A stretch of DNA of 64,000 nt from an uncultured Actinomycetota bacterium (GTDB taxonomy: Bacteria; Actinomycetota; Actinomycetes; Propionibacteriales; Nocardioidaceae), in NCBI GenBank assembly GCA_963834245.1, contig CAWIAV010000002.1, forward strand, positions 792,038 through 856,037, in the 5' to 3' direction. The translations under genes and the position numbers were made by a program. Shown here one piece after another: positions 3,776 through 34,774 of this stretch. The notes beneath the pieces were generated by a model. That model had not been told where the DNA came from. It worked only from the letters and a program-made list of their open reading frames with translations, and searched no databases. How positions within the stretch are numbered: position 1 is the stretch's first letter; each line of letters starts with the position of its first letter.

Positions 3776-4734
3776 CGGGCCTCCAGCTTCAGCATCAGGC
3801 GGACGTTGTAGACCACGATCGGGATTACCAGGACGAAGATCAGCGTTGCCAGCGCGGCTCCGAGACCCTGGTTGAAGGACCGGAAGCTTTGTACGTAGAA
3901 CTCATAGGCGATAACGCTGGTCCCGAAGTTGCCGCCAGTCGCGGTCCGCACGATGTCGAAGACTTTGAGGGTGGCGATGCTGATGGTGGTGAGCACCACG
4001 ATCAGCGAAGGTTGGATGCTGGGGACGGTGATGTAGCGGAACATCTTGATGCCGCTGACCCCGTCGAGCCGGGCCGCATCGATGACGTCGTCGGGGATCG
4101 CCTTGATGGCGGCCGACAGGATCGTCATGGCGAAACCGGCCTGGATCCAGACCATGATCACCACGAGGAACAGGGTGTTCCACGGCTCGGTGAGCAGGAA
4201 TCGGTAACTGTCGAGCCCCACCCCCGTCAGCACCGCGTTCAGGATGCCGATCTGGTCCTGGTCGGTTCCCTTGTAGGCGTAGACGAACTTCCAGATGATC
4301 GAGGCGCCGACCAAGGAGATGGCCATCGGCAGGAAGATCAGCGCTTTGGCGAACTTCTCGAACTTGGCACGGTCGACCAGCACTGCGTAGACGAGGCCCA
4401 CGAAGGTCGACAGCAGCGGGACGAGGACGACCCAGATCGCCGTGTTGCGCAGCACCTTCAGCTGTGCGCCGTCGGTGAAGATCGTCTGATAGTTCTCGAG
4501 GCCGACGAACTCCGTACCACCAGCGTTCTTGAACGACTGGATGATCGTGGTCACCGCCGGATATAGCAGCCCCACGGCGATCATCAGCAGCGCCGGGACC
4601 ACGAAGGCTGCGATCTGGATGCGCTCACCGTTGCGCGAGCGGAGCCGCGCGGTCACCAGCAGGATCACGCCCACGACCCCGAAGAACAGCGCCACGGCGA
4701 TGACGAGTTGCAGGAACTTCTCCGCTGTAGACAT
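3772..4734 (-). CDS. Carbohydrate ABC transporter permease (MalF-like)
   Basis: 'FVGLENY', EAA motif 'IPDDVIDAARLDGVS', TM segments; 4-nt overlap with the next permease. Confidence 0.93.
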   Translation of the reverse strand: MSTAEKFLQLVIAVALFFGVVGVILLVTARLRSRNGERIQIAAFVVPALLMIAVGLLYPAVTTIIQSFKNAGGTEFVGLENYQTIFTDGAQLKVLRNTAIWVVLVPLLSTFVGLVYAVLVDRAKFEKFAKALIFLPMAISLVGASIIWKFVYAYKGTDQDQIGILNAVLTGVGLDSYRFLLTEPWNTLFLVVIMVWIQAGFAMTILSAAIKAIPDDVIDAARLDGVSGIKMFRYITVPSIQPSLIVVLTTISIATLKVFDIVRTATGGNFGTSVIAYEFYVQSFRSFNQGLGAALATLIFVLVIPIVVYNVRLMLKLEAR

Positions 4735-6215: not shown

Positions 6216-6269
6216 TTGACGCTCTCCTCGTCGTTCGGTGTGGACTTTCGCCACACGCAGACCTGCTGA

Positions 6270-6283
6270 TGTAAGCGTTTGCG
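6270..6283. promoter_or_regulatory. Putative LacI-family operator between divergent SBP and ATPase genes
   Basis: TGTAAGCGTTTGCG resembles the LacI-family palindrome TGnAAnCGnTTnCA and sits in the shared promoter region. Assignment to the adjacent LacI is inference. Confidence 0.55.
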
Positions 6284-6442
6284 CAGCACCGCGGTCAAGG
6301 GCTTCGGGCAACGGATTCGTAACGGCGTCAGGTCGTCTAGGCAAGTTTTGCCGAGCCTCCGATCGGCACGTAGTGTGATGCAGACCACTCACAACTCACA
6401 ACGGATCGTCCGGCACGTTCCTGCCGGTGAGGAGATGGAATA

Positions 6443-17736: not shown

Positions 17737-17903
17737 GGTCAGGGTGGAAGCAGGATGTCCATGACGAAGAGCGTGACAGCCAGTACCGACAAGTCGGGGA
17801 CGACGTCTCCGCCAGCGCGTGATTTGCGGAACGGGGAAACCTTGCTTATGGTTCCGCGGGCGGGGGGGCTCGATGCAAACCGACGCAACCCCGCAGGAGT
17901 AAG

Positions 17904-20057
17904 ATGAAATACCGTGTAGTCAACACATCTCAGACAGGTCGGCAAAGCTGTCGTAGCCGCAACTGCGGTTCTCGCAGTGGCGGCAACCTCTCAGACACAG
18001 CTGCCCGGCTCGAGCGCCAAGGCCTCGCCGGGCCAGGACAAGATCGTCACCAGCGCCGCCAAGACGTGCGGAGCGGCAGGAAGTACGCGCCCGACTGTGG
18101 CGCACTGTGGGGCGCCTACACCCTGCAGGGCCGAAACCCCGAGCAGGCGGTCACCGGCCTGGAGTCGCAGATCGGGCGCAAGTTCGACCTCACCAAGAGG
18201 TACCACGATTTCTCTGACTCACGGCACCAGGGACGGTTCCCCGACGCCTTTGAGCGCAAGCTCGGCCAGTCGCGCACACCGTTCATCGCCTGGCAGGCAC
18301 GGGTCTCCAAGACCAAGCGCAACATCTCGTGGCGCGCGATCGCCAACGGCAGCTACGACCGCTACGTGAAGAGCGCGGCCACTCGCGTGAAGGCGTACAA
18401 GCGGCCGATGTTCATCGCCTTCGACCCCGCCTTCGATGCCCACCGCACCAAGGGCAGCATGGCCGACTACGTGGCGGCCTACCGGCACATCGTCCAGGTC
18501 TTCAAGGCCAACAAGGTGACCAACGTCGCCTGGGCCTGGGTCTCGACGGGCTACGTCGGGGGAGGCAACGGCTCCCGGATCCAGCAGGGCTACCCCGGTG
18601 ACGCGTACGTCGACTGGATCGGCTGGGACACCTACAACTTCTACAAGTGCAACGGGAGCAGCTGGAAGACCTTCGCGCAGAAGGTGACGCCCACCTACAA
18701 CTGGATGCAGGCGAACGGGCACGGTGACAAGCCGTTCCTGCTCAGCGGCTACGGCACGCAGTACGACCGCGCCAACGCTGCGCGCTCGACCAGAGGTGGC
18801 ACTCCGACGATTCCGGGTGCGCTCAAGAACCTGCCGAACCTCAAGGCAATGATCCGGTCCGACTCCAACGGTGCCTCCCGCACGCGGAAGTGCAACTTCT
18901 ACATCAAGAACGGCGGCGCGGCGAGCCTCAAGGACTTCGCGAATGCCGGTCGCGCGGTGCAGGCCGGGCTCCAGCCCGGTTCGAGCAAGACAGGGACCCC
19001 GGCGCAGGGCGGCAGCGCTCCCAGCGCACCGGCTCCGAGCACACCCGCTCCGAGCGCACCCAAGACCTCCACCGCTCCCAAGACCCCCACCGCTCCTAGC
19101 ACTCCGGTCGCACCCCGGACCACCGGCGCGTCCGGGTCTGCCACGTGCGGAGCGGTAGGCAAGTACGCGCCCAAGTGCGGCGCGCTGTGGGGTGCCTACA
19201 CGCTCCAAGGCGGCAACCCAGAGACGGCGGTCACGAATCTGGAGTCGCAGGTCGGCCGGAAGTTCGACCTGACCCTGAGGTACCACGACTTCTCCGACCA
19301 CCAGCATCAGGGGCAGTTCCCGGATGCCTATGAGCGCAGGCTCGGCCAGTCGCGCTACCTCTTCTTCTCCTGGCAGGCGCGGGTCTCCGACACCAACCGC
19401 AACATCTCGTGGCGTGCCATCGCCAACGGGAGCTACGACAGGTACATCAAGAGCGCAGCCACGCGAGTGAAGGCCTACAACCGGCCGGTGTTCATCGCCT
19501 TCGACCCGGAGTTCGACACGCACAAGACCAAGGGCAGCATGGCTGACTACGTGGCTGCGTACCGGCATGTGTTCAACGTCTTCAAGTCCTACCAGGTGAC
19601 CAACGTCGCCTGGGCGTGGGTCTCCTCGGGTTACCTCGGCGCGGGCAACTCGGACCGGATCCAGCAGGCTTACCCCGGTGACGCCTACGTCGACTGGGTC
19701 GGTTGGGATCCCTACAACTTCTACCGCTGCAACGGCACGGCCTGGAAGACGTTCGGCGAGAAGGTGACGCCCACCTACAACTGGATGAAGGCCAACGGGC
19801 ACGGGGACAAGCCGTTCCTGCTCAGCGAGTACGGCACCCAGTTCGACTCGAGCAACCCGTCCCGCTCCGCGCAGTGGCACGCCGGCATCCCCGGTGCGCT
19901 GAAGAACCTGCCGAACCTCAAGGCGATGGTGCGCTTCGACGCCGACGGGTTCTTCGGTTCGAAGAAGTGCAACCTCTACATCAAGAACGGTGGCAACGCG
20001 AGCCTTCAGGACTTCGCGAAGGCCGGGCGCGAGGTCCAGGCCGGGCTCCGACGCTGA
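17904..20057 (+). CDS. Secreted protein with two tandem GH26-like (clan GH-A) domains joined by a Pro/Thr/Ser/Ala linker; N-terminus probably scrambled by compensating indels
   Basis: Two ~300-aa repeats offset by 1080 nt, each with 'RYHDF', 'WRAIANGSYD', 'YPGDAYVDW.GWD.YNF', 'KPFLLS(E/G)YG'. AGGAG RBS. A signal-peptide-like 'KAVVAATAVLAVAAT' lies in the +1 frame at 17941-18080. Confidence 0.85.
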   Translation: MKYRVVNTSQTGRQSCRSRNCGSRSGGNLSDTAARLERQGLAGPGQDRHQRRQDVRSGRKYAPDCGALWGAYTLQGRNPEQAVTGLESQIGRKFDLTKRYHDFSDSRHQGRFPDAFERKLGQSRTPFIAWQARVSKTKRNISWRAIANGSYDRYVKSAATRVKAYKRPMFIAFDPAFDAHRTKGSMADYVAAYRHIVQVFKANKVTNVAWAWVSTGYVGGGNGSRIQQGYPGDAYVDWIGWDTYNFYKCNGSSWKTFAQKVTPTYNWMQANGHGDKPFLLSGYGTQYDRANAARSTRGGTPTIPGALKNLPNLKAMIRSDSNGASRTRKCNFYIKNGGAASLKDFANAGRAVQAGLQPGSSKTGTPAQGGSAPSAPAPSTPAPSAPKTSTAPKTPTAPSTPVAPRTTGASGSATCGAVGKYAPKCGALWGAYTLQGGNPETAVTNLESQVGRKFDLTLRYHDFSDHQHQGQFPDAYERRLGQSRYLFFSWQARVSDTNRNISWRAIANGSYDRYIKSAATRVKAYNRPVFIAFDPEFDTHKTKGSMADYVAAYRHVFNVFKSYQVTNVAWAWVSSGYLGAGNSDRIQQAYPGDAYVDWVGWDPYNFYRCNGTAWKTFGEKVTPTYNWMKANGHGDKPFLLSEYGTQFDSSNPSRSAQWHAGIPGALKNLPNLKAMVRFDADGFFGSKKCNLYIKNGGNASLQDFAKAGREVQAGLRR

Positions 20058-20071: not shown

Positions 20072-20844
20072 TCAGTCCAGGTCGACGATGACCGGGGCGT
20101 GGTCGCTGGCACCCTTGCCGGCGCGCTCGTCGGGTCGATGAAGGCACCGGTGACCCGGGCTGCGAGCGTCGGGTTGGCAAGGACGAAGTCGATTCGCATG
20201 CCACGGTTGCGCTCGAAGCGCTGCCGGTAGTAGTCCCAGTAGGTGTAGACCTCCGGGCCGGGTGCGTGCGGGCGTACGACATCGACGTACCCGTCCTCGA
20301 GGAAGCCGGAGAAGGCGGCGCGCTCCCGCGGAGTGACGTGCGTGCTCCTCGCGAAGGCGGCGATGTCGAAGACGTCGTCGTCCTGGGGTGCGATGTTCCA
20401 GTCGCCGACGAGGGCCACGTCGCCGCTCATGCCGCGGGCGGCCTCGCGCAGCCGGGCGAGCCACTCGAGCTTGTAGACGTAGTGCGGGTCGTCGACCTTG
20501 CGCCCGTTGGGCACGTAGAGCGACCAGATCCGTACGCCGCCACAGGTGGCGCCGATCGCGCGCGCCTCGGTCGCAGCCGGATCACCCCAGGTGGGCATCC
20601 CGGGGAAGCCGACCTCGACGTCCTCGATGCCGACCCGGCTGATGACAGCGACGCCGTTCCACTGGTCGTGACCGACGGCGGCGACGTCGTAGCCGAGCAC
20701 GGCCAAGCCCATCAAGGGCAGCTGGTCCTCGCGCGCCTTGGTCTCCTGCAGCGCCAGGACGTCCACGTCGTGGCGCTGCAGGAACGCCTCGACGCGGTCG
20801 ATCCGGCTCCGCAGGGAGTTGACGTTCCAGGTGGCGATGCGCAC
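20072..20844 (-). CDS. xth: Exodeoxyribonuclease III (AP endonuclease), frameshift near the 3' end (~20133)
   Basis: 'RIATWNVNS', 'LQETK', 'YVPNG', 'GDWNIAP', 'RIDF'. The terminal 'ERAGKGASDHAPVIVDL' is reached by restoring one base. TAGGGT lies 7 nt before the GTG. Confidence 0.9.
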
Positions 20845-20874
20845 GCGGGACACCCTAGGCGGGGCCGGCTCGGC

Positions 20875-23064
20875 TCACCCCTGGGAGGGTCCTGGCTCGC
20901 CTGCGGAGTTCAGATAGGTGAAGGTCAGGTCCACCCGGGTGCCCGGCAGCCCGGCCCAGTTGTGCACCTCGAGGCGGTAGCGGCCAGGAGCGGGTGTGGC
21001 GTATGTCAGCGACTCCTCGGTGAGGCTGCCGCTGCCTCCCGACGTCAGGTCGCTGCTCCAGGTGCCGTCGGCGTTCTGCCGTTGCAGGTAGAGGTCGATG
21101 TCCGACGCCATGCTGGGCACGGCGCTGGCGAGCAGCTTGGCGTTGTCGAACCCCTCCTTGACGTCGAACTCGTGGTGGGCCACCGTCACCGGCGTCCGTT
21201 CGGGGCCGCCCGCCGGGGGAGTCACTGATGCCTTCTCCTCGGCCTGGGCAGGCCCGGTGACCGGCGGCTGCCCGCCCTCGTCGAGCGAGAAGGGCACCGT
21301 GTCGGAGACCAGGGTCGGGCTCCCGACCACGGGGACCTCGAGCGAGGTGCCGTCGGGCCCGGTCAGGATCGAGATGTTCGGGTCCTGGGCGAAGGTCGGC
21401 ACCTTGTCCGGGTCAGACGTGGTGAACCGCAGCACCAGCTTGTGGCCCGCGCGCAGGTTGTGCGCCATCGCGAAGCCCGGGGGCTTCATCTCGTAGCGCA
21501 TGCCCGGGACCACCGGTGACGGCGTCGAGACGCCCGAGCGCAGCTCGGGGTTGATGGCGAACTGGCTGATCCGTCGGCGGTCGCCGTCGGTGCCCTCGTC
21601 GTACAGGGTCCCGATGAGGTGCACGCGTGGCGTGGAGAAGGATGCCACCAGGTCGAGCAGCGGCTGGCCCGCCAGCACGGTGTCCGTGGCCATCGGCTCG
21701 GTGGCGAAGTCGACCCCACCGGTGCCCTGGGGGTCGACATGGCCGCGGGCGTCACCGGCGAAGCTCTTCGAGCCCGGTGTCGTCGGACGGCTCTTCGCGA
21801 GGGTGTTGTCGGCGGTCGGGAAGAGCGACAGCATCTGCTGGCTGCTCGTGGGCCACTGCTTGTCGATCAGGATCTGCGAGCGGTCGCCGGTGCGGGCGCC
21901 GCTGAAGGTGCCGTCGGAGAGGAACATCTCCGCCTCGGGACCGGTGTCCACGTCGCGTTGTGCGAGCTGCTTGTCGAACCACGCGTGCAGCGCGTAGGTC
22001 CACTGGATGCCACGCCGTGTCGGGCAGCACCCGGAGCCGTGGTCCCACTGTCCGAGCCACAGCTTGTCTCCGGGGCGTGCGTTGCGCTTGGTGAACCACT
22101 CGATGCCGGCCACCCGGGCGGCGTTGTCGTTGACGCCGTGGACCATGAACACCGAGACGTCGGAGGCGGTGGCCGCCGAGCGCCAGTCGCGCTGCGCGTG
22201 CCACGCGGTGTACTGCCCGGAGAGCTGCGCCTCGCCGGCGGTCAAAGAGCTGTTCGGAAGACCACAACCGGTCTCGGCCGGCTTCTGCCCGGCGTGCTCG
22301 CCACCGGGGAGGTCCCGCTCGGCGGCGAGCTGCTCGTAGGCGAACATGGGTCCGGCCCACTGCAGGAAGTACGGCACTCCCGCCTGGAACTGGTGGTCGT
22401 ACATCGTGGCCATGCCGGCGCTCGGGACGATCGTGACCAGTCCCTCCGGGTCGGTGGCCGCTGCCAGGGAGGGCGTCGAGCCGACGTAGGAGTGACCGGT
22501 CATGCCGACCCTGCCGTTGGACCATGGCTGCGAGGCCGCCCACTCCACGACCCGCTTGAGGTCCTTGGCGTCGTTGCTGCCGAGGTGGTCGAGGCACCCG
22601 TCACTGAGCCCGGTGCCGCGCAGGTCCATCATCACCACGGCGTAGCCCTTGGGCGCGAAGTAGTCCGTCAGCCCGAGGGAGGTGCCCTCGGCGTCACGCG
22701 GCTCGGGGAGGATCCGTCGGCCCTCCCTGTCGGCCAGCGTGCCGTGGTAGGGGCTGGACTCCAGGATCACCGGCCAGGGGCCCTCCCCCGTGGGACGGGT
22801 GACCTCGATGTGGACCTCGGTGCCGTCCCACATGGGCAGCTCGAGCTTGTCCTTGCGCGTGGTGTGGCTGTCCTGGCTCAGTCCCGCGACCTTGGTGTAG
22901 TCGAACGGCGCGGCCGGCTGCGTCGGGGGCGGGTTCTTCGGACCCTTGCCGGGCTTGTCGGGTTTCGCGGCCTGCGCCGGTTGCATGACCGCAACGGTCA
23001 GGACGACGGAGACAGCGGCGGCGAGCGCGGCGCCGAGGCGGCGGCGAGGGGGTAGTGAGGACAT
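20875..23064 (-). CDS. Secreted CocE/NonD (S15 X-Pro dipeptidyl peptidase-like) hydrolase with C-terminal PPC-like domain
   Basis: Signal peptide 'RRRLGAALAAAV..AQA', 'DLRGTGLSDG', nucleophile 'GHSYVG', 'GQWDH'; C-terminal 'DIDLYL..GRYRLEV'. Confidence 0.85.
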   Translation of the reverse strand: MSSLPPRRRLGAALAAAVSVVLTVAVMQPAQAAKPDKPGKGPKNPPPTQPAAPFDYTKVAGLSQDSHTTRKDKLELPMWDGTEVHIEVTRPTGEGPWPVILESSPYHGTLADREGRRILPEPRDAEGTSLGLTDYFAPKGYAVVMMDLRGTGLSDGCLDHLGSNDAKDLKRVVEWAASQPWSNGRVGMTGHSYVGSTPSLAAATDPEGLVTIVPSAGMATMYDHQFQAGVPYFLQWAGPMFAYEQLAAERDLPGGEHAGQKPAETGCGLPNSSLTAGEAQLSGQYTAWHAQRDWRSAATASDVSVFMVHGVNDNAARVAGIEWFTKRNARPGDKLWLGQWDHGSGCCPTRRGIQWTYALHAWFDKQLAQRDVDTGPEAEMFLSDGTFSGARTGDRSQILIDKQWPTSSQQMLSLFPTADNTLAKSRPTTPGSKSFAGDARGHVDPQGTGGVDFATEPMATDTVLAGQPLLDLVASFSTPRVHLIGTLYDEGTDGDRRRISQFAINPELRSGVSTPSPVVPGMRYEMKPPGFAMAHNLRAGHKLVLRFTTSDPDKVPTFAQDPNISILTGPDGTSLEVPVVGSPTLVSDTVPFSLDEGGQPPVTGPAQAEEKASVTPPAGGPERTPVTVAHHEFDVKEGFDNAKLLASAVPSMASDIDLYLQRQNADGTWSSDLTSGGSGSLTEESLTYATPAPGRYRLEVHNWAGLPGTRVDLTFTYLNSAGEPGPSQG

Positions 23065-23158
23065 CGGAGTGCCTTTCCGAGCGGTGGCCAATGCTGTGTC
23101 CAACGCCCCACCGACGCCCGGGTCACGGCCCCGCCGCACGAAAGAGGATGCTGGGGGG

Positions 23159-23485
23159 ATGGAACAGCCACGCGCAGTGCTCACGGCCAAGCTGGCAGAG
23201 ATCGACGACGAGATGGCCGAGATGGAGAAGAAGCCGACCGACCAGGGCTCGATCTCCTTCGGCAAGCGAATCGGCGAGGGGACGTCGATGGCCGTCGACC
23301 GGCTGGCGCAGGTGGCGGTTCACGACCAGCTCCAGCTCACCCGGGCCGACGTGGTGCGGGCACTGGAGAAGCTGGACGACGGGTCCTACGGCACCTGTGA
23401 CGTCTGCGCGAAGCCCATCCCGCAGGGGCGACTCGAGGCGTTGCCCTGGGCGGTTCTCTGCGTGGAGGACTCGGCCAGGCGCTGA
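23159..23485 (+). CDS. TraR/DksA family protein
   Basis: Coiled coil, then 'ALEKLDDGSYGTCDVCAKPIPQGRLEALPWAVLCVED'. Confidence 0.88.
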   Translation: MEQPRAVLTAKLAEIDDEMAEMEKKPTDQGSISFGKRIGEGTSMAVDRLAQVAVHDQLQLTRADVVRALEKLDDGSYGTCDVCAKPIPQGRLEALPWAVLCVEDSARR

Positions 23486-23521
23486 GCTACGCCTGAATCC
23501 GTGCGGTGGCGGGGCCGACCT

Positions 23522-23929
23522 TCAGCCGGGCGACGCGGTGGCCCGCCGGACCGTCGCGAGCACTCCGTCGGACCCGAGCGCCTGCACGTCGCCGACCCAC
23601 TGACCGTCCACGAGCACCGAGCCGGCCGTGGTCGCCCGGTTGGCCTCGCGCAGGGCGGCCAGCGTGCCCCGTCGACGCTGGACCGCCATGAAGACGCTGG
23701 GCAGCAGGTACGCCGTGTTGTTCGCCCCGACTATCTGCACGTCGAGCTCGGGGAGCTCCTCGCGCAGGCGCAGGTAGGTGGCGGCCACCAGTTCGACCTC
23801 CGGGTCGTGCTCGCGCGCACCGTCGACGCGGCCCTCGAAGCAGATGCCGTCTCGCGCGTCACCGCTGCAGCAGCCCGTACCGCCGTGGGCGTCGGTCCAC
23901 GGGCGCACGAGCACCACCCTGGGGGTCAT
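23522..23929 (-). CDS. Hypothetical protein with GGTGCCSG motif, translationally coupled to cstA
   Basis: The ATG at 23929 overlaps the cstA TGA (ATGA). 135-aa ORF 'MTPRVVLVRPWTDAHGGTGCCSG..'. Confidence 0.65.
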   Translation of the reverse strand: MTPRVVLVRPWTDAHGGTGCCSGDARDGICFEGRVDGAREHDPEVELVAATYLRLREELPELDVQIVGANNTAYLLPSVFMAVQRRRGTLAALREANRATTAGSVLVDGQWVGDVQALGSDGVLATVRRATASPG

Positions 23930-25665
23930 CGTCTGCTCGGAGCGTCCGAGTCGCTGTCCACGGGGGCGTCGGTCTTGCCGGCCGCGGGAGAGCCTGCCGA
24001 TCCCCGAAGGGCCATGGCGGCCTCGACGATCAGCCACGCAGCCAGCACGAAGATGATGGCGTCGAGGGGCGCAAGCACCCACTGGTCGGTCTCGATGAAC
24101 TTCTTCAGGTTCACGATCAGCGCCCACGTCGTCATCCCGAGGAGGAAGACCAGCGGGATCACGATCGGCACGATGTTGCGCTTGAGCTGAGCCACCCAGA
24201 CCGCCACGACCGCGAGCGCCAGACCGGCGGTGAGCTGGTTGGTGGTGCCGAACAGCTGCCACAGCACGCCGAACGTGTAGCCCTGGTCACCGCCGCCGGG
24301 CAGCAGTGCCATGGCCAACGGCACGACGACAGCGACGATGCCGGCCAGGGTCAGGTTGCGGGCGAGCTTGTGCCAGCCCGCGATCTCGGCGATCTCCTGC
24401 ACGACGTACCGCTGGAGGCGGACGCCGGTGTCCATGGTGGTTGCGGCGAAGGAGATGACCACGACCGCCGCGAAGATCACCGCGAGGTCGAGCGGGATGC
24501 CGAGGTTGTTGGCGAAGACCCCGACCCCGTTGACGAAGTTGCCCACGGCGCCGCCAGATGCGGTGGCGAAGTCCGGGTAGAGCTTGTCCCAGTCGGACTG
24601 GGTGGCCACGACGCCGGCCGTGGTGGCCAGCACCGCGCCGGTCGCCAGGCTGCCCTCGCCGACGGCCCCCATGTAGCCCACGTAGCGGGCGTCGGTCTCC
24701 TTGTCGATCTGCTTGGCCGTCGTACCCGAGGAGACCAGCGAGTGGAAACCGGAGATCGCGCCACAGGCGATCGTGATGAACAGGAACGGGAAGATCGACG
24801 GCGAGCCCTCCGGGACGTCGTTGACGAGGGGGGCCGAGATCGTGTTCCAGCCGACCAGCATGCCGAGCCCGATCACTCCGAGCGCGATGAACAGCTGGTG
24901 GGAGTTGATGTAGTCGCGAGGCTGCAGCAGCATCCAGATCGGCAGCCGGGAGGCGATGAAGGTGTAGGCGAAGAGGATGACCACCCACAGGTTGCGCGGG
25001 TTGTCGAAGCCGATCGCCTCGGCGAGCGAGGTGATGTCCACCGGCACCTTCTGGCCCACCCAGATCAGCAGGTAGAGGCCGATCACACCGATGATCGAGG
25101 GGACCAGCGCCGCGCTCCGGGTGCGGTAGATGTACTGGCCGATGAACATCGCCAGCGGGATCTCCACGAAGATCGGGATGACCGCGCCGGGGTTGGCCAC
25201 GAACAGGTTGCCGATGACGACGGCGAACACGGCGTTCACCAGGGTCAGCAGGAAGAAGATGATCAGCAGGAAGAGCGTGCGCGCTCGCTTGCTGATGACG
25301 TCGTGCGCGATCGTGCCGATGTTGCGGGCTCCGTGACGCAGCGAGACGGCCAGGGACCCGAAGTCATGCACGCCGGCAGCGAAGATCGTGCCGAGGACGA
25401 TCCACGCGAGTGCCGGGCCCCAGCCCCAGAAGACCGCGATGGCCGGACCGACGATGGGGGCGGCGCCGGCGACCGAGGTGAAGTGGTGGCCGAAGACGAC
25501 GTGCTTGTTGGTCGGGACGAAGTCGATCCCGTCGCTGAACTGGTGGGCCGGGGTCACGAACTCCCGGTCCAGGCAGTAGATCCGGTCGGCGAGGTAGGTC
25601 GAGTAGTAGCGGTAGCCCAGGAAGAACAGGACCCCGACGACTGCGGCGACGGCGATGGCGGGCAC
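23926..25665 (-). CDS. cstA: Carbon starvation protein A family transporter
   Basis: 'DGIDFVPTNKHVVFGHHFTSVAGAAPIVGP', 'LLQPRDYIN', 'IACGAISGFHSL', 'LWQLFGTTNQL'. GAAGGAG RBS before GTG 25665. Confidence 0.95.
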   Translation of the reverse strand: MPAIAVAAVVGVLFFLGYRYYSTYLADRIYCLDREFVTPAHQFSDGIDFVPTNKHVVFGHHFTSVAGAAPIVGPAIAVFWGWGPALAWIVLGTIFAAGVHDFGSLAVSLRHGARNIGTIAHDVISKRARTLFLLIIFFLLTLVNAVFAVVIGNLFVANPGAVIPIFVEIPLAMFIGQYIYRTRSAALVPSIIGVIGLYLLIWVGQKVPVDITSLAEAIGFDNPRNLWVVILFAYTFIASRLPIWMLLQPRDYINSHQLFIALGVIGLGMLVGWNTISAPLVNDVPEGSPSIFPFLFITIACGAISGFHSLVSSGTTAKQIDKETDARYVGYMGAVGEGSLATGAVLATTAGVVATQSDWDKLYPDFATASGGAVGNFVNGVGVFANNLGIPLDLAVIFAAVVVISFAATTMDTGVRLQRYVVQEIAEIAGWHKLARNLTLAGIVAVVVPLAMALLPGGGDQGYTFGVLWQLFGTTNQLTAGLALAVVAVWVAQLKRNIVPIVIPLVFLLGMTTWALIVNLKKFIETDQWVLAPLDAIIFVLAAWLIVEAAMALRGSAGSPAAGKTDAPVDSDSDAPSRR

Positions 25666-25840
25666 GAGACGCTCCTTCCGACAACCCCGGGCCCGAGCGG
25701 CCAGTGCGGGGAAGACACGCAGGGGCATTGTCACCCACTGCCACGCGCCTCACAACCACCAAGTCCGCGAGCCCTACGCTGACCGGGTCGACCTGACCGG
25801 GGAGTCGGACCGGCCGGGCACGCGCAGGAAGCGGGATCCC

Positions 25841-26620
25841 ATGGACGTCGACGAGCTGACGGCGGTGCTGGCCGCATCGTCCTTGAGCGAGCTGTGCTGG
25901 GTCGACGCGGCTGGACGACCCCAGGTGACCGGCGTCGTGACGCTGGTCCGGGGCGGGCGCCCGGCGATCGCCTTCACCTACGCCGAAGAGGCACTGGCCC
26001 GGGATCTCGCCGCGTCGCCCCAGGTCGCTCTGGCGCTGAGTGAGGACCGCTCCACCGGTCGCTCCTTCATGCCCACGCTGCTCACCGGACGACCCCGGCT
26101 GGTCGAGGACCCGGAGGGCGAGGTGTTCGTCCAGGACCTGCTGACCCAGGAGCTGCGTCGCTACCCACCCACGCGCCTGCTGGCCGACTCGCCGCTGCTG
26201 ATGCGCGAGCACTGGTGGTACCTGCCGCGCCTCGTCGTCGAGCTCGAGGTCGACAGCACCGAACCCCTGCCGCCCCGTCGCAGTGGCGGTCGCGACCACC
26301 TGCTGGTGGTGGCGATCGACTCGCGTCCGGTGGTGCGGTCGGCCGGGGTCGGGCAGCAGAGCTCGGGCCGGCTGGAGCTCGACCTCGACGGGACCGCCCC
26401 GCCGACGGGCCCCGGTGTGGTCTTCGGACAGGACGCGTCGTTCCCCGACCTCGAGCAGTGGTCCCAGTGGCACTACCGCGGGCTCTGGGACGGGGCCGGC
26501 TTCGAGGTCGACGAGGCGCCCGAGCGGGTCGGTCTCGGCCAGCAGGCGGGGCTGCTGGCGCGGTGGTGGCGCCAGCGAACGCTCGAACGACTGTGTGTCC
26601 GCGCGATCCCGCAGCGCTGA
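25841..26620 (+). CDS. Pyridoxamine 5'-phosphate oxidase-like (split-barrel) family protein
   Basis: 'ELCWVDAAGRP..V', 'LAASPQVALAL' fit the N-terminus of this fold; weak recognition. Confidence 0.5.
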   Translation: MDVDELTAVLAASSLSELCWVDAAGRPQVTGVVTLVRGGRPAIAFTYAEEALARDLAASPQVALALSEDRSTGRSFMPTLLTGRPRLVEDPEGEVFVQDLLTQELRRYPPTRLLADSPLLMREHWWYLPRLVVELEVDSTEPLPPRRSGGRDHLLVVAIDSRPVVRSAGVGQQSSGRLELDLDGTAPPTGPGVVFGQDASFPDLEQWSQWHYRGLWDGAGFEVDEAPERVGLGQQAGLLARWWRQRTLERLCVRAIPQR

Positions 26621-26674
26621 GGCGGGGCCGGGGCGCCCAGCAGCGCGCCGGTGGACGGGGGATGATGGACCCCT

Positions 26675-29218
26675 ATGGAACTCACCGACCTGCTGCCGTC
26701 CCAGCAACCCGGCGGCGACGCTTCAGGCGGGGTCGACCCGGATCTGCTCTTCGATGCCTTCGAGTCCTGGGTCTCCGACCAGGGCCTGACCTTGTACCCG
26801 GCTCAGGAAGAAGCGCTGATCGAGGTGGTCAGCGGCAACAACGTGATCCTCTCCACGCCCACCGGGACCGGGAAGAGCCTCGTGGCCACCGGTGCCCACT
26901 TCGCCGCGCTCGCGGACGGGCGACGCACCTACTACACGGCCCCGATCAAGGCCCTGGTCTCGGAGAAGTTCTTCGCGCTGATCGAGGTCTTCGGGGCCGA
27001 GAACGTCGGCATGCTCACCGGCGACGCAGCCGTCAACGCCAAGGCGCCCATCGTGTGCTGCACCGCGGAGGTGCTCGCCAACATCGCCCTGCGCGAGGGT
27101 GCCCAGGCCGACATCGGCCAGGTGGTCATGGACGAGTTCCACTTCTACTCCGAGCCCGACCGTGGCTGGGCGTGGCAGGTGCCGCTGCTGGAGCTGCCGC
27201 AGGCCCAGTTCCTGCTGATGTCGGCGACGCTGGGTGACGTCACCGCGTTCGTCGACGACCTGACCCGGCGTACCGGACGGCAGACGTCGGCCGTCACCAG
27301 CGTCACGCGGCCGGTGCCGCTGAGCTATGAGTGGGCGGTGACGCCGATGCACGAGACGCTCGAGGAGCTGCTCACCACGCACCAGTCGCCGGTCTACGTC
27401 GTGCACTTCACCCAGGTCGCGGCCCTCGAACGCGCCCAGGCGCTGACCAGCATCAACGTGTGCACCCGCGAGGAGAAGGACCGGATCGCCGAGCTGATCG
27501 GGGGTTTCCGGTTCAGTCCCGGTTTCGGCAAGACCCTGAACCGGCTCGTCAAGCACGGCATCGGGGTGCACCACGCCGGCATGCTGCCGAAGTACCGCCG
27601 CCTGGTGGAGCAGCTCGCGCAGGCCGGTCTGCTCAAGGTCATCTGCGGGACCGACACCCTCGGCGTCGGCATCAACGTGCCCATTCGCACGGTGGTCTTC
27701 ACCGGCCTGTCGAAGTACGACGGTCGACGCCAACGCATGCTCAAGGCACGTGAGTTCCACCAGATCGCCGGCCGCGCCGGTCGGGCCGGGTTCGACACGG
27801 CAGGCACGGTGGTGGTGCAGGCGCCCGACCACGTCGTGGAGAACCACCGGCTCGTGCAGAAGGCCGGTGACGACCCCAAGAAGCTCAAGCGGGTCCAGCG
27901 CAAGAAGGCTCCCGAAGGTCAGGTCACCTGGACCGAGGACTCCTTCGAGCGCATCGTCGCCGCCGCCCCGGAGGCACTGGTCTCCCGGATGCGGGTGAGC
28001 CACGCGATGCTGCTCAACGTGATCGCACGACCGGGGGACCCCGCCGCCGCGATGCGCCGGCTGCTCAGGGACAACCACGAGGACGAACGGTCCCAGCGCC
28101 AGTTGATGCGCCGTGCGGCTGCCATGCACCGTGCCCTGCTCGGGTCCGGGGTGGTGCAGCTCCTCGACAAGCCTGAGGTGGACGGCCGCCGGGTCCGGCT
28201 CGTCGAGGGCCTCCAGCTCAACTTCGCGCTCAACCAGCCGCTGTCGGCGTACGCCCTCGAGGTCTTCGACACCCTCGACCCGGAGGCGCCGACCTACCCT
28301 CTCGACGTGCTCTCGGTGGTGGAGGCGACGCTCGAGGACCCGCGGGCGGTGCTCGGCGCGCAGGAGCACCTGGCGCGGGGGGTCGCCATCGGCGAGATGA
28401 AGGCCGACGGCATCGAGTACGACGAGCGCATGGAGCTGCTCGAGGACATCACCTGGCCCAAGCCGCTGCAGGAGCTGCTGGAGCACACCTACGAGCTGTA
28501 CCGCCGCCGGCACCCGTGGGTGGGGGACGACGCGCTGTCGCCGAAGTCGGTGGTCCGCGACATGTACGAGCGTGCGATGACCTTCGCCGAGTACGTCGCG
28601 TTCTACGGCCTCACCAGGTCCGAGGGGCTGGTGCTGCGCTATCTCGGCGACGCCTACCGGGCGCTGCGCCAGACGGTGCCCGAGCGAGTGCGCACCGACG
28701 AGCTCGAGGACATCATCGCTTGGCTCGGCGCCGTCGTCCGGCAGACCGACTCGAGCCTGCTCGACGAGTGGGAGCAGCTCAACGACCCCGCCCGGCTGGC
28801 CGGCGACGCAGCGCCGGACATCCTGCCGCCGACGCCGGAGCGGATCACCGCCAACGAGCGGGCCTTCACCGTGCTGGTGCGCAACGCCATGTTCCGTCGC
28901 GTGGAGCTGGCCGCCCTGCGCCGCGCCGAGGAGCTCGCCGAGCTGGAGAGCGCCGCGGGCTCGACCATGACGGGTGCGGACTGGCGCGAGGCGCTGGACG
29001 ACTACTTCGCCGAGCACGACAGCATCGACACCGGTCCCGATGCCCGCGGCCCCCGGATGCTGCTGATCGAGAAGACCCAGCTGACCTGGGAGGTCCAGCA
29101 GATCCTCGGCGACCCGGAAGGCTTCCACGACTGGCGGATCACCGCCACCGTCGACCTCGCGGCGTCCGACGCCGAAGGCGAGCTGGTCCTCGACGTGACC
29201 GGGTTGGTGCAGGTGTAG
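26675..29218 (+). CDS. Ski2-like DEAD/DEAH-box helicase with DUF3516 C-terminus
   Basis: Walker A 'TPTGTGKS', 'APIKALVSEK', 'DEFH', 'SAT', 'QIAGRAGR'; C-terminal 'SEGLVLRYL.DAYRAL'. Confidence 0.93.
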   Translation: MELTDLLPSQQPGGDASGGVDPDLLFDAFESWVSDQGLTLYPAQEEALIEVVSGNNVILSTPTGTGKSLVATGAHFAALADGRRTYYTAPIKALVSEKFFALIEVFGAENVGMLTGDAAVNAKAPIVCCTAEVLANIALREGAQADIGQVVMDEFHFYSEPDRGWAWQVPLLELPQAQFLLMSATLGDVTAFVDDLTRRTGRQTSAVTSVTRPVPLSYEWAVTPMHETLEELLTTHQSPVYVVHFTQVAALERAQALTSINVCTREEKDRIAELIGGFRFSPGFGKTLNRLVKHGIGVHHAGMLPKYRRLVEQLAQAGLLKVICGTDTLGVGINVPIRTVVFTGLSKYDGRRQRMLKAREFHQIAGRAGRAGFDTAGTVVVQAPDHVVENHRLVQKAGDDPKKLKRVQRKKAPEGQVTWTEDSFERIVAAAPEALVSRMRVSHAMLLNVIARPGDPAAAMRRLLRDNHEDERSQRQLMRRAAAMHRALLGSGVVQLLDKPEVDGRRVRLVEGLQLNFALNQPLSAYALEVFDTLDPEAPTYPLDVLSVVEATLEDPRAVLGAQEHLARGVAIGEMKADGIEYDERMELLEDITWPKPLQELLEHTYELYRRRHPWVGDDALSPKSVVRDMYERAMTFAEYVAFYGLTRSEGLVLRYLGDAYRALRQTVPERVRTDELEDIIAWLGAVVRQTDSSLLDEWEQLNDPARLAGDAAPDILPPTPERITANERAFTVLVRNAMFRRVELAALRRAEELAELESAAGSTMTGADWREALDDYFAEHDSIDTGPDARGPRMLLIEKTQLTWEVQQILGDPEGFHDWRITATVDLAASDAEGELVLDVTGLVQV

Positions 29219-29226
29219 CCCCACAG

Positions 29227-29247
29227 AACCCCATGTAAATCGGGGTT
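29227..29247. terminator. Short hairpin between convergent helicase and acyl-CoA dehydrogenase genes
   Basis: AACCCC-N9-GGGGTT immediately after the helicase stop. Confidence 0.35.
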
Positions 29248-29322
29248 ATGGACGCTCATCAAGACCCGTGCCGGCGCCGAACCGTCCACAGCCCTCGCCA
29301 AGTCAGGTCTACGTCGACCGGC

Positions 29323-30522
29323 TCAGGCGAACGCGCTCTCCCCGGTGATCGCCCGTCCCACGATCAGGGTGTTCATCTCGCGAGTGCCCTCGTAGGAGTA
29401 GATCGCCTCGGCATCGGCGACGAACCTGCCGACGTGGTGCTCGAGCAGTACGCCGTTGCCGCCGAGCACCTCGCGCGCCCAGCCGACGCCCTCGCGCATC
29501 CGCACGGTCGCATGGGCCTTGCAGAGCGAGGCGTGCTCGTCCTTGAGCAAGCCCGCGTCCTGGAGCTGCGAGGCACGCACGTTCATGGCCGTCGACGCCG
29601 TGACGTTGCTGAGCATCTTGACCAGCAGGTCCTGGACCATCTGGAACGACGCGATCGAGCGACCGAACTGCTGTCGCGCCTTGGTGTAGCGCAGGGCATG
29701 CTCGAACGCACCGCGCGCACACCCGGTCGCCATCCAGGCGACGTTCATCCGGGTCACCCGGAGCACGTCGGCCGTCGCGCGGAAGGTGTCGGCACGCTGG
29801 AGGCGGTTGGCCTCGGGGACCCGTACGTCGACCAGGTGGATCTCGGCGTTCTGCACGACGCGCAGGGCGATCTTGTCCTCCTGCTTGTCGAACGTCATCC
29901 CCTCGGTGCCCTTCTCGACCACGAAACCCTTGACCTGGTCGTCGGCCTCGTCCCGGGCCCAGACGACGACGAGGTCGGCGAAGGCCGCGTTGCCGATCCA
30001 CTTCTTCTCACCGTTGAGGACCCAGTCGTCGCCGTCACGGCGCGCTGTGGTCGCCATCCCCTGGGAGATGTCGGAGCCGTGCTCGGGCTCGGTCAGCCCG
30101 AACGCTCCGATGAGGTCCATCCGCGCCATGTCCGGCAGCCAGCGCTCGCGCTGCTCGTCGGAGCCGCAGAGCTGGATCGAGCCCATGGCCAGGCCGCCGT
30201 GCACCCCCATGAAGGTGGCCATCGACGGGTCGACCCGGGCCAGCTCCATCGCGACCAGGCCGTCCACGAGCGCCCCGCGAGCCGGGCAGCCCGGCGCGTC
30301 GTACGCCAGGCCGGCGATGCCGAGCTTCGCCAGCCCCGGCACCAGCTCGTGGGGGAACTCCGCCCGCGTCCAGTAGTCGTTGATCACGGGCTCGACCTCA
30401 CGGGTCATGAACGCCCGGACGCTGCTCAGGAGCTCGCGGTCCGGCTCCTCCAGCAGCAGCTCGAAGCCGAGGAAGTCGGAGAACGGCGAGTCGTCGAGGC
30501 CGAGATCGGTCAGGTCAGTCAT
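29323..30522 (-). CDS. Acyl-CoA dehydrogenase (glutaryl-CoA dehydrogenase-like)
   Basis: 'GAFGLTEPEHGSD', 'LNGEKKWIGNA', 'RQQFGR', 'LGGNG', 'YSYEGT'. Confidence 0.93.
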   Translation of the reverse strand: MTDLTDLGLDDSPFSDFLGFELLLEEPDRELLSSVRAFMTREVEPVINDYWTRAEFPHELVPGLAKLGIAGLAYDAPGCPARGALVDGLVAMELARVDPSMATFMGVHGGLAMGSIQLCGSDEQRERWLPDMARMDLIGAFGLTEPEHGSDISQGMATTARRDGDDWVLNGEKKWIGNAAFADLVVVWARDEADDQVKGFVVEKGTEGMTFDKQEDKIALRVVQNAEIHLVDVRVPEANRLQRADTFRATADVLRVTRMNVAWMATGCARGAFEHALRYTKARQQFGRSIASFQMVQDLLVKMLSNVTASTAMNVRASQLQDAGLLKDEHASLCKAHATVRMREGVGWAREVLGGNGVLLEHHVGRFVADAEAIYSYEGTREMNTLIVGRAITGESAFA

Positions 30523-31375
30523 GGGCGCCTCCCGGCTGCAGGAACTCTTCGATGACCGGTGCCAGCTCGCCGGCCTCGGTCAGGATGGCCAGGTGGCCGC
30601 CCTGGTAGATGTGCAGCCGGGCTCGCGGGATCAGCCGGGCCTGCAGCCGCGGGTTCGCGACCGGGATGATCGGGTCGTCGTCGCCGCCCATCACCAGCGT
30701 GGGTTGGCGAATCAGCCCGAGGAACGGCAGGCTGGTCCAACCCGTCATGGCGGCGAGCTGGTAGTAGTAGCCGCGCTTCGGGCCGGCTCGAGTGGCATCG
30801 TGCAGGAGCCGGGCCCCGCGCGCGGGGTCGGTGCGCATCGTGCCGCCGTAGATCTCCGAGGCGATGCTCGCGGCGTACGCCGGGTCGCGGTGCCGCCGGG
30901 GGGTCAGCATCTTGGCCAGCACCCGCGGGTGCGCGGGCACCATCAGCGATCCGGTGCCGGTGGCGACCAGCACCACCCGGCGTACCCGCCGCCGAGACTG
31001 CACGGCCAGCTGCTGCGCGAGGCCGCCGCCCCAGGACAGCCCGAGCACGTCGAAGCTCTCGTGCCCCAGCTTCGCCATCAGCGCCGTGACCCAGGAGGAC
31101 AGCGCGGCGATCGGGTAGGGGAGCGGCGGGGCCTGGCTGCCCCCCACGCCGGGGACGTCGAAGCGCACGATGCCCCGGTCCGGGTCGAGCGCCTGGACGA
31201 GGGGGTCGAGGGCCTCGAGGCTGGCGCCGATTCCGTTGCAGAGCAGCAGCGGCGGTTCGTCGGCCAGCGGCCCGCGCGCAGGACGGACGGAGACCCGGGC
31301 CTGGAGCCCGCGCACGGAGACGGTGCGCACCCGGTCACGACCTCGTCGCGTGTCCGCCGTGCCGTCAGCGGTCAT
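30515..31375 (-). CDS. phaZ: Intracellular poly(3-hydroxyalkanoate) depolymerase, Pseudomonas PhaZ type
   Basis: 'NGIGASLE', 'FDVPGVGGS', lipase box 'GLSWGG', 'DDPIIP', 'GGHL' match Pseudomonas mcl-PhaZ motifs; directly follows phaC. Confidence 0.88.
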   Translation of the reverse strand: MTADGTADTRRGRDRVRTVSVRGLQARVSVRPARGPLADEPPLLLCNGIGASLEALDPLVQALDPDRGIVRFDVPGVGGSQAPPLPYPIAALSSWVTALMAKLGHESFDVLGLSWGGGLAQQLAVQSRRRVRRVVLVATGTGSLMVPAHPRVLAKMLTPRRHRDPAYAASIASEIYGGTMRTDPARGARLLHDATRAGPKRGYYYQLAAMTGWTSLPFLGLIRQPTLVMGGDDDPIIPVANPRLQARLIPRARLHIYQGGHLAILTEAGELAPVIEEFLQPGGAHD

Positions 31376-33083
31376 GGACGTACGTGCCCGGGGCATCGCA
31401 CACGGGCTCGTACGCCGCCGATCCGAGCCGGCGCGGTTTGTTGCGTTCCGGGCCGGTGCGCTCGGCCAGCCATTCGACGTAGTCCTCCCACCAGCTGCCC
31501 TTGACCTTGCTCGCCCCCGCCAGCCACTCCTGCGCGTCCGCGGGGTTCTCCGCAGCGGTCTGGAAGCTGGCCTTGGGGTTGCCGGGCGGATTGACCATGG
31601 CGGCGATGTGACCGCTGGTGGAGAGCACGAACTTGCTGTTGCCGCCGAACAGCTGGGTGCTCTGGTAGCAGGACTGCCACTTGCAGAGATGGTCCGCGAT
31701 CCCGGCCACGACGTAGGAGTCCACGTCGATCTTCCCGAGGTCGACCTCGGAGCCGAGCATCCGCGAAGCGCCGGGCTCGGTGAGGGCGTTGCGGATCGCG
31801 AGGTCCATGAAGTCGCGGTGCATCGCGGCGCTCATCCGCACCGGATCGGCGTTCCAGTAGAGGATGTCGAACGCCTTGGGGGGATAGCCGAGCAGGTAGT
31901 TGTTGACCCAGTAGTTCCAGATCAGGTCGTTGGGACGCAGCCAGGCGAACACCTCTGCGAGCACGCGGCCGTCGAGGTAGCCCTTCTCAGCCGAGGCCCG
32001 GGTCGACGCTGCGGCAGCCTTGTGCGAGAGCAGAGCGTTGGGGAGCCCTGCTTGTTCCTGGTCGAGCACCGTGACGGCCAGGCTGTACGCCGCGACCCGG
32101 TCCAGCTCGCCGATCGCGGCGAGGTGCGCCATCACCATCGAGGCCAGCATCCCCCCGGAGCAGATGCCCAGGATGGCGACCTTGTCCTGGCGCGAGATCT
32201 TCTCGGCGGCGGTCATGGCCTCGAGGATCGCCTCGCCGTAGGTGTCCAGCCCCCACGCGGCGTGCCGGGCGTCGGGGTTGCGCCACGAGATGCAGTAGAC
32301 CTGCTGGCCGTGGGCGACGAGGTGCTCGACCAGGCTGCGCTGCTCGGCGAGGTCGATCACGTAGTACTTGTTGATCGTCGGCGGGACGATCAACAGCGGG
32401 ACGGTGCGGACCTTCGGTGTCTGCGGCGCGTACTGGATCAGCTCGAAGACGTCGGTGCGCAGCACCACCTGGCCGGGCGTGATCGCGAGATCGGTGCCCA
32501 CCTCGAAGGCGTCGGGCTCGACCATGGACGGCACGCGCGGCGCCGTGGCGAAGTCGCGCACGAAGCGTCGCCCGCCGGCGAACAGGTTGCCGCCGCCGGT
32601 GTCGATGACCCGCTTGAGCACCTTGGGGTTGAGCGCCGGGTTGTTGCTCGGCGCCGACGCCTCCACGAGGTTGTCGACGATGAACCGCATCCGCTGCTCG
32701 TCGCCCCAACCGAGCTCGGCGTCGTCGACGAGGCCGCGCGCGGCGTCACCCACCGCCAGATAGCCCTGCAGCGTGCGCTTGAGCAACGGGTTCTTGGCCC
32801 AGCCCTCCTCGGCGAAGCGGCGGTCCTTCTCGTGCGGCGCCACGCTGGAGCGACCCAGACCCACCTTGGCGAGCTCGGCGGCCAGCCCGGCTCCACGGCG
32901 TACGACGCGGCCGGGACGGCGCGCCAGACCGGCGGTGAAGCGGACACCCGACATGCCCGGCAGGAACCTGCGGACCGGGCTGGTGGTGGCGTCGGCCAGC
33001 AGCAGGTCGAGCGGCGTGGACACCTCCACGCGACCGTCGTCGACCTCGTCCACGCGGGTCTGTTGCTCGGAAGCGGTGCTCAC
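31365..33083 (-). CDS. phaC: Class II-type poly(3-hydroxyalkanoate) synthase
   Basis: '[12 protein letters not shown]', 'ISWRNP', catalytic Cys box 'GICSGG', '[19 protein letters not shown]', 'ADH', 'SGHIA', 'GSWW', 'APGTYV'. Confidence 0.93.
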
Positions 33084-34582: not shown

Positions 34583-34774
34583 GGGTTGCCTCCAGGCGTC
34601 GTGTGTCGGTCGTGCCGGGCTCGAGCGGGCTGTTCGAGCCGCGCGAGGTGCGTGGTCTGGGATCGTTACCGTTTCCACTACCCACTGTGGCCGGCGTCAC
34701 ACTCGAACGTACACAGCGCTCAGTGACTTCTTGGATTCGTGGGTGCGGGCTCACCGCCCGTAGACTCGCCGCCC

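Follow-up and report, generated by a model that had tools for sequence, protein, structure and literature searches.

A tandem GH26 gene of an uncultured Actinomycetota bacterium that joins a probably inactive, selectively maintained barrel to an intact paralogue

We analysed a 64,000-nt stretch of DNA (hereafter, the window) from an uncultured Actinomycetota bacterium of the family Nocardioidaceae (contig CAWIAV010000002.1, positions 792,038 to 856,037), focusing on a plus-strand open reading frame (ORF) at 17904–20057 that encodes two Lic26A-like barrels of glycoside hydrolase family 26 (GH26) in one polypeptide, 717 aa long as assembled (Table 1). Between the two domains (18081–18977 versus 19161–20054), identity is 76.8% for protein and ~80% for DNA, and their catalytic codons are separated by 1080 nt at both sites. 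An earlier reading of the locus from its letters alone (the sequence-only reading) had described a first domain with GCC and GGC where the second has GAG and GAG, at this same offset, and the codons are exactly as it stated. It had also begun the gene at 18066, which is a GTG chosen by the gene caller; the true start is the ATG at 17904, which matches the start of a syntenic orthologue, is preceded by a conserved AGGAG and opens a Sec signal peptide. In a Pfam scan of the window protein, GH26 (PF02156) was the sole match, at 40.1 bits against a cutoff of 20.2 bits, and no carbohydrate-binding module (CBM) model was hit. An exact-sequence lookup of the protein returned no record.

Table 1. Coordinates of the tandem GH26 gene and its parts in the window. 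L001 is a single-domain syntenic orthologue; X1, X2 and X4 are sources of metagenomic contigs used for comparison; organism A is a relative at ~87% nucleotide identity.
Feature	Position	Strand	Evidence and remarks
Shine-Dalgarno AGGAG	17895..17899	+	CAGGAGT 5' of ATG common to window and syntenic orthologue L001
Whole gene: signal peptide, probably dead GH26 barrel, Pro/Thr/Ala/Ser linker, putatively live GH26 barrel, stop	17904..20057	+	ORF list, translation, Pfam
Sec-type signal peptide and mature N-terminus (MKYRVSTHLRQVGKAVVAATAVLAVAATSQTQLPGSSAKASPGQDKIVTSAAKTCGAAG)	17904..18080	+	+1 frame aligns with L001 signal peptide; frame lost 17919-18078 as assembled
Extra base private to the assembly, first of a frame-restoring pair	17919	+	Absent from X1 contig (0 mismatches); X4 lacks a base at 17918
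GG run (relatives GGG, domain 2 GGC); 1-nt loss regaining the ORF frame	18076..18080	+	X4 reads GCAGGGAAG; repeat offset is 1079 before this point and 1080 after it
Domain 1, probably dead Lic26A-like (beta/alpha)8 barrel, aa 60-358	18081..18977	+	Identity to domain 2, retained residues, model, omega
GCC, Ala176, acid/base position (FDPAFD)	18429..18431	+	Glu in every live homologue; GCG (Ala) in organism A domain 1
GGC, Gly282, nucleophile position (LLSGYG)	18747..18749	+	Near-identical X1 contig the same here
Local frame slip, +2 at 18788-89 and +1 at 18809	18788..18809	+	SQRWHSD becomes STRGGTPT, near-invariant Trp gone; X1 (2 mismatches) lacks all three bases
55-aa Pro/Ala/Ser/Thr-rich flexible linker	18978..19142	+	Composition P12 A11 S10 T10; pLDDT <50
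Domain 2, intact Lic26A-like GH26 barrel; barrel proper from 19161, aa 420-717	19143..20054	+	Profile match, AF2 model, Foldseek
GAG, Glu536, acid/base, directly after beta-4 (FDPEFD)	19509..19511	+	Aligns with CtLic26A E109 (H-E-A-N-G); X2 contig identical across codon
GAG, Glu642, nucleophile, on beta-7 (LLSEYG)	19827..19829	+	Aligns with CtLic26A E222

To place the two domains within GH26, a family profile was built from 59 sequences with domain 2 as its first sequence (A2). The profile aligns end to end with C. thermocellum Lic26A (CtLic26A; E=2e-62), with E109 opposite the Glu of FDPEFD and E222 opposite that of LLSEYG. Following Taylor et al. 2005, we take E109 to be the acid/base and E222 the nucleophile; these roles fit the H-E motif and the titles of PDB entries on the covalent intermediate. 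A single-sequence search also returned CtLic26A as the nearest solved protein, with the acid/base misplaced there through a spurious gap. The AlphaFold (AF2) model of domain 2 (mean predicted local distance difference test score, pLDDT, 95.7) is a (beta/alpha)8 barrel with eight strand/helix repeats, in which the acid/base Glu (model residue 121) follows strand 114–118 and the nucleophile (residue 227) lies inside strand 223–230. Searched with Foldseek, this model had the Lic26A structures 2v3g, 2bv9 and 2cit on top (template modelling (TM) scores of 0.75–0.82), followed by a mixed-linkage xylanase, a beta-1,3-xylanase and then mannanases, the top 34 matches all being GH26. By this ranking, domain 2 sits in the lichenase/xylanase-like corner of GH26, and the ‘beta-mannanase’ labels carried by its relatives should not be trusted as a guide to substrate.

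Domain 2 thus combines the barrel similarity, the acid/base after beta-4 and the nucleophile on beta-7 that characterize GH26 within clan GH-A; the sequence-only reading had placed the glutamates at these two strands, which the profile alignment and the confident model corroborate, and both domains match GH26. From sequence and model, domain 2 is most likely a working retaining endo-beta-glycanase that uses Glu536 as its acid/base and Glu642 as its nucleophile. CtLic26A (PDB 2bv9, 2cit, 2v3g, 2vi0), which is the lichenase module of CelH, has the same GH26 subfamily-level fold and a catalytic Glu pair that lines up with that of domain 2; it differs in sequence (~22% identity) and in being a single live barrel within a cellulosomal multi-enzyme, whereas the window gene is a tandem with a dead first copy. 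Having neither catalytic Glu, domain 1 is homologous to GH26 in structure without being a GH26 enzyme. Nor does it belong, in the sequence sense, to any defined CBM family of CAZy; known CBMs are mostly beta-sandwiches, and the fold of domain 1 is a barrel.

The losses were checked against independent metagenomic contigs. The window's own reads are absent from the runs that were used (the best run holds 19% of the words of the window), and the comparison relied on soil-metagenome contigs near-identical to the window (X1) and on a relative found in runs X4 and X7 (organism A, ~87% nucleotide identity). The X1 contigs span the nucleophile codon and agree on GGC. In organism A, an 885-nt contig, which begins upstream of the gene and covers most of domain 1, reads GCG, that is, Ala, at the acid/base codon, and a domain 2 contig from the same samples reads GAG there. 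The 885-nt contig groups with domain 1 of the window, away from domain 2, with 92% support in a four-point bootstrap. A further contig of 806 nt connects the end of domain 1 with domain 2 across a linker of 168 nt, showing that the tandem is common to organism A. Far from restoring Glu codons in domain 1, the outcome that the sequence-only reading had named as fatal to its proposal, the independent contigs show no Glu at either site that they cover (GGC in X1, GCG in organism A).

The suspicion that errors of sequencing or assembly produced the Glu losses, which local indel discrepancies in the assembly might feed, is already refuted and has next to no probability left, given that the losses are substitutions, that they are confirmed in short-read contigs from other samples and that a diverged relative carries a synonymous variant, GCG. 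The sequence-only reading had argued that each loss needed two substitutions and was, for that reason, unlikely to be an error. That argument holds, and the GCG of the relative accounts for the two substitutions at the acid/base site: GCC was reached by one replacement, GAG to GCG, followed by a silent change.

Another X4/X7 contig, of 501 nt, was considered as domain 1 of organism A and rejected as a third, more divergent homologue. It falls on 19768–19858 plus 18722–18781 of the window, its translation includes AWKTFERTI, TYNWFKSKGL and ASTRWYSDIP, and its nucleophile codon starts with GA (Glu or Asp). As it represents neither domain 1 nor domain 2 of organism A, these samples hold more than one related genome or paralogue.

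Apart from the two glutamates, domain 1 is well preserved. It keeps 11 of the 13 family-invariant columns, losing only the two Glu, and agrees with domain 2 at 23 of 24 near-invariant columns; the other invariant residues, aromatic ones included, and all four Cys are retained, bearing out what the sequence-only reading had said of the surrounding aromatic and cysteine residues. Among 37 columns that are >=90% conserved, changes on the domain 1 branch affected both catalytic columns and none of the 35 others (Fisher p=0.0015). Selection was assessed on domain 1 with three private inserted bases removed. Between the two domains, synonymous divergence (dS) was 0.50 and nonsynonymous divergence (dN) 0.15, a ratio (omega) of 0.30; with a single-domain orthologue as outgroup, branch omega was 0.34 [0.21–0.58] for domain 1 and 0.26 [0.15–0.45] for domain 2. 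Between the window and organism A, domain 1 (167 codons) had a dS of 0.345, a dN of 0.099 and an omega of 0.29 [0.17–0.48], its 68 differences falling 36/20/12 on codon positions 3/1/2. None of 2000 bootstraps reached an omega of 1 for the domain 1 branch, and none of 2000 did so for the window and organism A. Since both lineages already have Ala at the acid/base position, purifying selection acted on an already crippled domain. In a model of the tandem, moreover, the predicted secondary-structure pattern of domain 1 matches that of domain 2.

Domain 1 shows the hallmarks of a pseudoenzyme, with its catalytic residues gone, its fold and conserved residues kept, and purifying selection continuing after the loss. 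We consider it very probable that this domain is catalytically dead yet selectively maintained. A decaying duplication relic on its way to deletion would explain the absence of both catalytic residues, the slightly raised rate and the frame slip in the assembly, but is effectively refuted, and highly improbable, in view of omega values of 0.29–0.34 with upper bounds <0.6, the absence of change at all 35 other highly conserved positions, a GC content at third codon positions (GC3) of 0.93, and a domain 1 that is intact in both X1 and organism A. The sequence-only reading had allowed that orthologues might keep Glu while domain 1 decayed neutrally; the relative that carries the tandem has Ala at the acid/base site and an omega of 0.29. 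The F-to-S change in MIRSD, listed there as a warning sign, is real, as near-identical independent contigs confirm. That reading had further taken the loss of exactly the two catalytic residues as an argument against random decay. The contrast between two of two and none of 35, with omega below 1, supports this part, but neutral drift at two codons freed of catalytic constraint also produces the pattern; ‘targeted loss’ is compatible with such drift, and selection for inactivation is not required.

Could domain 1 still catalyse through other residues or by a different mechanism? The flanking Asp residues of FDPAFD are present and the cleft is apparently conserved. Against this, neither catalytic position holds a carboxylate, with Gly in place of the nucleophile the covalent step is lost, and the dead N-terminal domains of an older tandem class (see below) carry R/A/T/M and G/A/S, with no consistent replacement chemistry; we therefore give this possibility very little credence. 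Engineered GH26 variants with the nucleophile changed from E to G are, going by the title of PDB entry 1odz, hydrolytically dead glycosynthases.

The origin of the pair can be traced through the syntenic orthologue L001, in a metagenome-assembled genome (MAG) of an uncultured actinobacterium, where a yrdC-like gene, a membrane protein gene, rmuC, the GH26 gene and xthA are the same neighbours. The GH26 protein of L001 is single-domain, 355 aa long, has a normal signal peptide and ends in AGLQP, the exact end of domain 1 in the window. The duplication is thus lineage-specific, and the N-terminal barrel became non-catalytic after it, as the sequence-only reading had proposed, Ala176 and Gly282 being confirmed in independent contigs and L001 being single-domain. 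The dS between the domains (0.50) is slightly below their dS to L001 (0.55–0.57), which dates the duplication at or soon after the split from L001. No high-identity tracts suggestive of gene conversion were found between the domains (identity of 0.76–0.90 throughout). The genome and metagenome contig collections that we scanned held no close tandem orthologue; the best match was the single-domain L001, and the rest were <=50% identical. At 0.74, the GC3 of the linker is below that of the domains (0.93). Comparison with the 5' region, the 3' flank and the flanks of L001 gave no significant similarity that would point to an origin of the linker. Its length differs among populations: over window positions 18986–19158, an X2 contig carries 9 additional nt (GCCACCCCC) after 19139, the linker of organism A measures 168 nt compared with 171 nt in the window, and linker length also varies in X4.

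The assembled copy of the gene contains indels that its near-identical relatives lack. The +1 frame at 17920–18075 encodes a good signal peptide, whose displacement from the ORF frame had escaped the sequence-only reading; with two single-base corrections (17919, ~18078), peak Kyte-Doolittle hydropathy is 2.5, compared with −0.45 as assembled, and the corrected product begins MKYRVSTHLRQVGKAVVAATAVLAVAATSQ. Near 18078 the difference is one of homopolymer length, X4 having GGG where the window has GG. Likewise, removing three bases (18788–89, 18809), as in X1, restores RSQRWHSDIPGAL and the near-invariant Trp. The frame slip near 18790, which the sequence-only reading had regarded as a warning, is thus real in the window and absent from near-identical independent contigs. 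Assembly-wide indel error was considered as its cause and is not supported, as no indel disagreement with the same contigs occurs across 24000–36000 (12 kb).

These indels raise the prospect of a freshly broken allele in the window genome: all four private indels would be genuine, the signal peptide could not be translated in frame, export would fail and only sister populations would have a functional tandem. The indels at 17919, ~18078, 18788–89 and 18809 are each missing from X1 or X4 contigs, and the 12 kb free of indel disagreement speaks against generic assembly noise. On the other hand, both indel pairs restore the frame, which would be odd for free decay, one of them is the GG/GGG homopolymer difference, and GC3 and domain 2 are pristine. 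Taken together, we regard a broken allele as a serious but unlikely alternative, and it concerns this copy; at the level of the population, the ancestral form is an intact tandem that is secreted.

What would a dead barrel contribute to such a protein? The sequence-only reading had suggested glycan binding or processivity, either of which goes beyond the catalytic death and selective maintenance shown above. In the account that we propose, Sec would export a two-barrel protein that arose by internal duplication of a single-domain Lic26A-like GH26, and the C-terminal barrel would cleave a beta-linked polymer by a retaining mechanism. The N-terminal barrel, in which both carboxylates are gone (Ala176, Gly282), would be unable to run double displacement; its retained invariant residues suggest an intact cleft, through which it may bind the same polymer without cutting it. 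On its 55-residue flexible tether, domain 1 would then hold the polymer or anchor the enzyme, raising the local substrate concentration for the live barrel. The tandem model (predicted TM score 0.52, linker pLDDT <50) contains no predicted fixed interface between domains 1 and 2, and with a flexible tether of this kind domain 1 would act in a CBM-like manner. The substrate may be a polymer resembling beta-1,3/1,4-glucan or xylan, perhaps a bacterial exopolysaccharide (EPS). For this binding-module account as a whole, in which we infer both glycan binding and the catalytic benefit, we see the balance as tilting slightly in favour.

Relatives with an appended CBM offer a partial parallel. Like the window protein, they have a signal peptide, an N-terminal non-catalytic module, a linker and a C-terminal GH26 domain; their module is a beta-sandwich CBM, as judged from weak matches, whereas that of the window would be a recycled catalytic barrel. 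Among the closest single-domain relatives, the N-terminal matches are weak and mostly sub-threshold, to CBM4_9 in P0002 and to galactose-binding-like domains in P0004, P0012, P0013 and P0016.

Other dead barrels provide further comparisons. The closest is GH26B of PUL7 (a polysaccharide utilization locus) in Segatella copri, a natural secreted GH26 in which both Glu are mutated and which was read as a non-hydrolase and possibly a binding protein (PMC12704710); the mutations are conserved in the two studied MAGs and in 62 further S. copri genomes and MAGs (PMC12704710). Unlike domain 1, it stands alone with no fused live paralogue, falls in the mannanase branch and is encoded in a Bacteroidota PUL; it was the one case that our literature search on tandem or inactive GH26 recovered. 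GH18 chi-lectins such as YKL-40 and TCLL are the textbook example of glycoside hydrolase barrels without a catalytic carboxylate in which glycan binding and selection are kept (PMC3662789, PMC11721955); they belong to another family and clan, are mostly eukaryotic stand-alone proteins and have usually lost only the acid.

It is also conceivable that domain 1 is maintained in some capacity other than glycan binding. It might assist folding or secretion, serve as a spacer, provide an anchor to other proteins or to the cell envelope, or form an autoregulatory lid for domain 2. Purifying selection says just that the domain is useful, and the doubly dead, conserved GH26B of S. copri bound no tested glycan. 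Still, domain 1 of the window and the dead N-terminal domains of the older tandems alike keep all invariant residues bar the two Glu, the N-terminal slot of relatives gives weak CBM-like matches, and no fixed domain-domain interface is predicted, which together make a non-binding role improbable, though far from negligible, next to glycan binding.

Several observations weigh against a maintained, glycan-binding first domain of recent origin. For organism A, the contigs document the loss in domain 1 at the acid/base codon alone. Domain 1 has 28 polarised amino-acid changes and domain 2 has 17 (p=0.14), each outgroup is 3–5 points nearer to domain 2 than to domain 1, and some of the changes in domain 1 are at fairly conserved positions, e.g., P184T and F259S, so that domain 1 appears mildly accelerated relative to domain 2. 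The sister relationship of the two domains relative to L001 has just 75% support. The signal peptide is out of frame in the assembled copy, and the indel discrepancies cluster in this gene rather than being assembly-wide, suggesting that the particular assembled allele may be non-functional. The strongest caution comes from S. copri GH26B, the only natural GH26 with both Glu lost that has been characterised, which cleaved no tested glycan and did not bind the mannans, glucomannan or xyloglucan offered to it (PMC12704710).

A survey of 120 homologues showed that tandems with a dead N-terminal and a live C-terminal domain also exist in an older form. Both Glu are present in every one of the 71 single-domain sequences with coverage of the two catalytic columns, and likewise in all 47 C-terminal domains of two-domain proteins. 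Of 43 N-terminal domains, only 2 keep both; 18 have replaced Glu by Arg at the acid/base alone, and 23 have lost both, with A, T or M at the acid/base and G, A, S, R or N at the nucleophile. The remaining invariant residues are retained in these older N-terminal domains. Identity within the class is 70–77% among N-terminal domains and 66–76% among their C-terminal partners, whereas N-terminal and C-terminal domains are only ~31% identical to each other, which implies an old duplication, separate from that in the window. Our literature search found no description of this class.

Three representatives, ~620–690 aa long and covering both sub-classes (L019:8001-9929, L021:8001-9977, L024:6940-8880), lie inside Wzx/Wzy clusters that encode a priming transferase, glycosyltransferases, Wzy, a flippase, Wzz/BY-kinase, several sulfotransferases and a sulfatase. 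These are probably sulfated-EPS loci of uncultured Actinomycetota. In Actinoplanes missouriensis, the Wzx/Wzy cluster wps-1 contains the GH26 WpsE and two sulfotransferases, and deletion of wpsE has a mild phenotype (PMC13390465); as of 2026, no Wzx/Wzy cluster containing GH26 was stated to have been characterised previously (PMC13390465). WpsE resembles the older tandems as an actinomycete GH26 in a putative sulfated-EPS cluster, the context of L019, L021 and L024, a comparison that concerns cluster context and not domain layout. The window gene lies outside any EPS cluster, and a glycanase of the ExoK, PslG, BcsZ or WpsE type, defined by residence in such a cluster, is represented here by the older tandem class only.

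Considering the two cases together, it is possible, though we hold this tentatively, that Lic26A-like GH26 enzymes built their own substrate-holding module at least twice by duplication in cis and silencing of the N-terminal copy, once anciently (~31% identity) and once recently (77%). If so, the young pair would be a natural snapshot of a minimal path from enzyme to lectin, with ~28 polarised changes, two of them catalytic, and the old class would represent a part of the actinobacterial sulfated-EPS machinery that processes chains and has gone unrecognised. Dead glycoside hydrolase barrels have been described before, a doubly dead GH26 among them; the new elements here are the cis fusion to a live paralogue, the youth of the pair, the direct evidence of selection after the loss and the convergence with an undescribed class linked to sulfated EPS. 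The origin of dead barrels is usually obscured by age, whereas in this gene the dead and the live copy, 77% identical, share one polypeptide. Together with L001 as outgroup and a second lineage showing post-loss selection, this makes for an unusually clean system in which to ask which changes turn a GH-A enzyme into a non-cleaving partner, whether that partner binds glycan and what the live domain gains. The older parallel class, in turn, ties GH26 tandems to putative sulfated-EPS clusters in Actinomycetota. In practical terms, automatic annotation of such proteins as ‘2x GH26’ or ‘beta-mannanase’ overstates their catalytic content.

The genes around the tandem in the window are of a housekeeping kind (rmuC, xthA, a yrdC-like gene, ispH, xseA and glpX), along with an S15 peptidase gene and cstA. 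At 11–16 kb upstream lie a GH1 beta-glucosidase gene (1333–2826), genes for two likely ABC permeases (2816–4734) and a gene for a solute-binding protein (4842–6392); the GH1 enzyme and the putative ABC transporter might conceivably take up and process beta-gluco-oligosaccharides that the GH26 enzyme would release. The adjacent xthA (20072–20853, minus strand) is frameshifted near its 3' end, at ~20132, and the conserved C-terminal sequence ERAGKGASDHAPVIVDLD, which includes the catalytic His motif, is encoded in another frame; related X1, X2 and X8 contigs carry one more base at 20132–20133, and the L001 gene is intact (257 aa). Compared with L001, the window contains ~5.8 kb of extra sequence (20875–26660) between xthA and a DUF3516 helicase gene, encoding a 796-aa protein of the S15 X-Pro dipeptidyl-peptidase family and CstA. 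Further along, at 29323–30812, one stop-to-stop frame of L001 maps onto two window frames near 30540. X1 agrees with the window there, which excludes assembly error and leaves either a real lineage difference or an artefact of ORF segmentation.

Among the single-domain relatives, Microbacterium sp. p3-SID336 (L023:5650-11712) has two adjacent paralogues, P0008 and P0009, the latter with a weak CBM-like N-terminal match. They follow a gene for a 715-aa protein with a weak phage-tail beta-helix match and adjoin a sugar ABC transporter and a GntR regulator, in what looks like a foraging locus.

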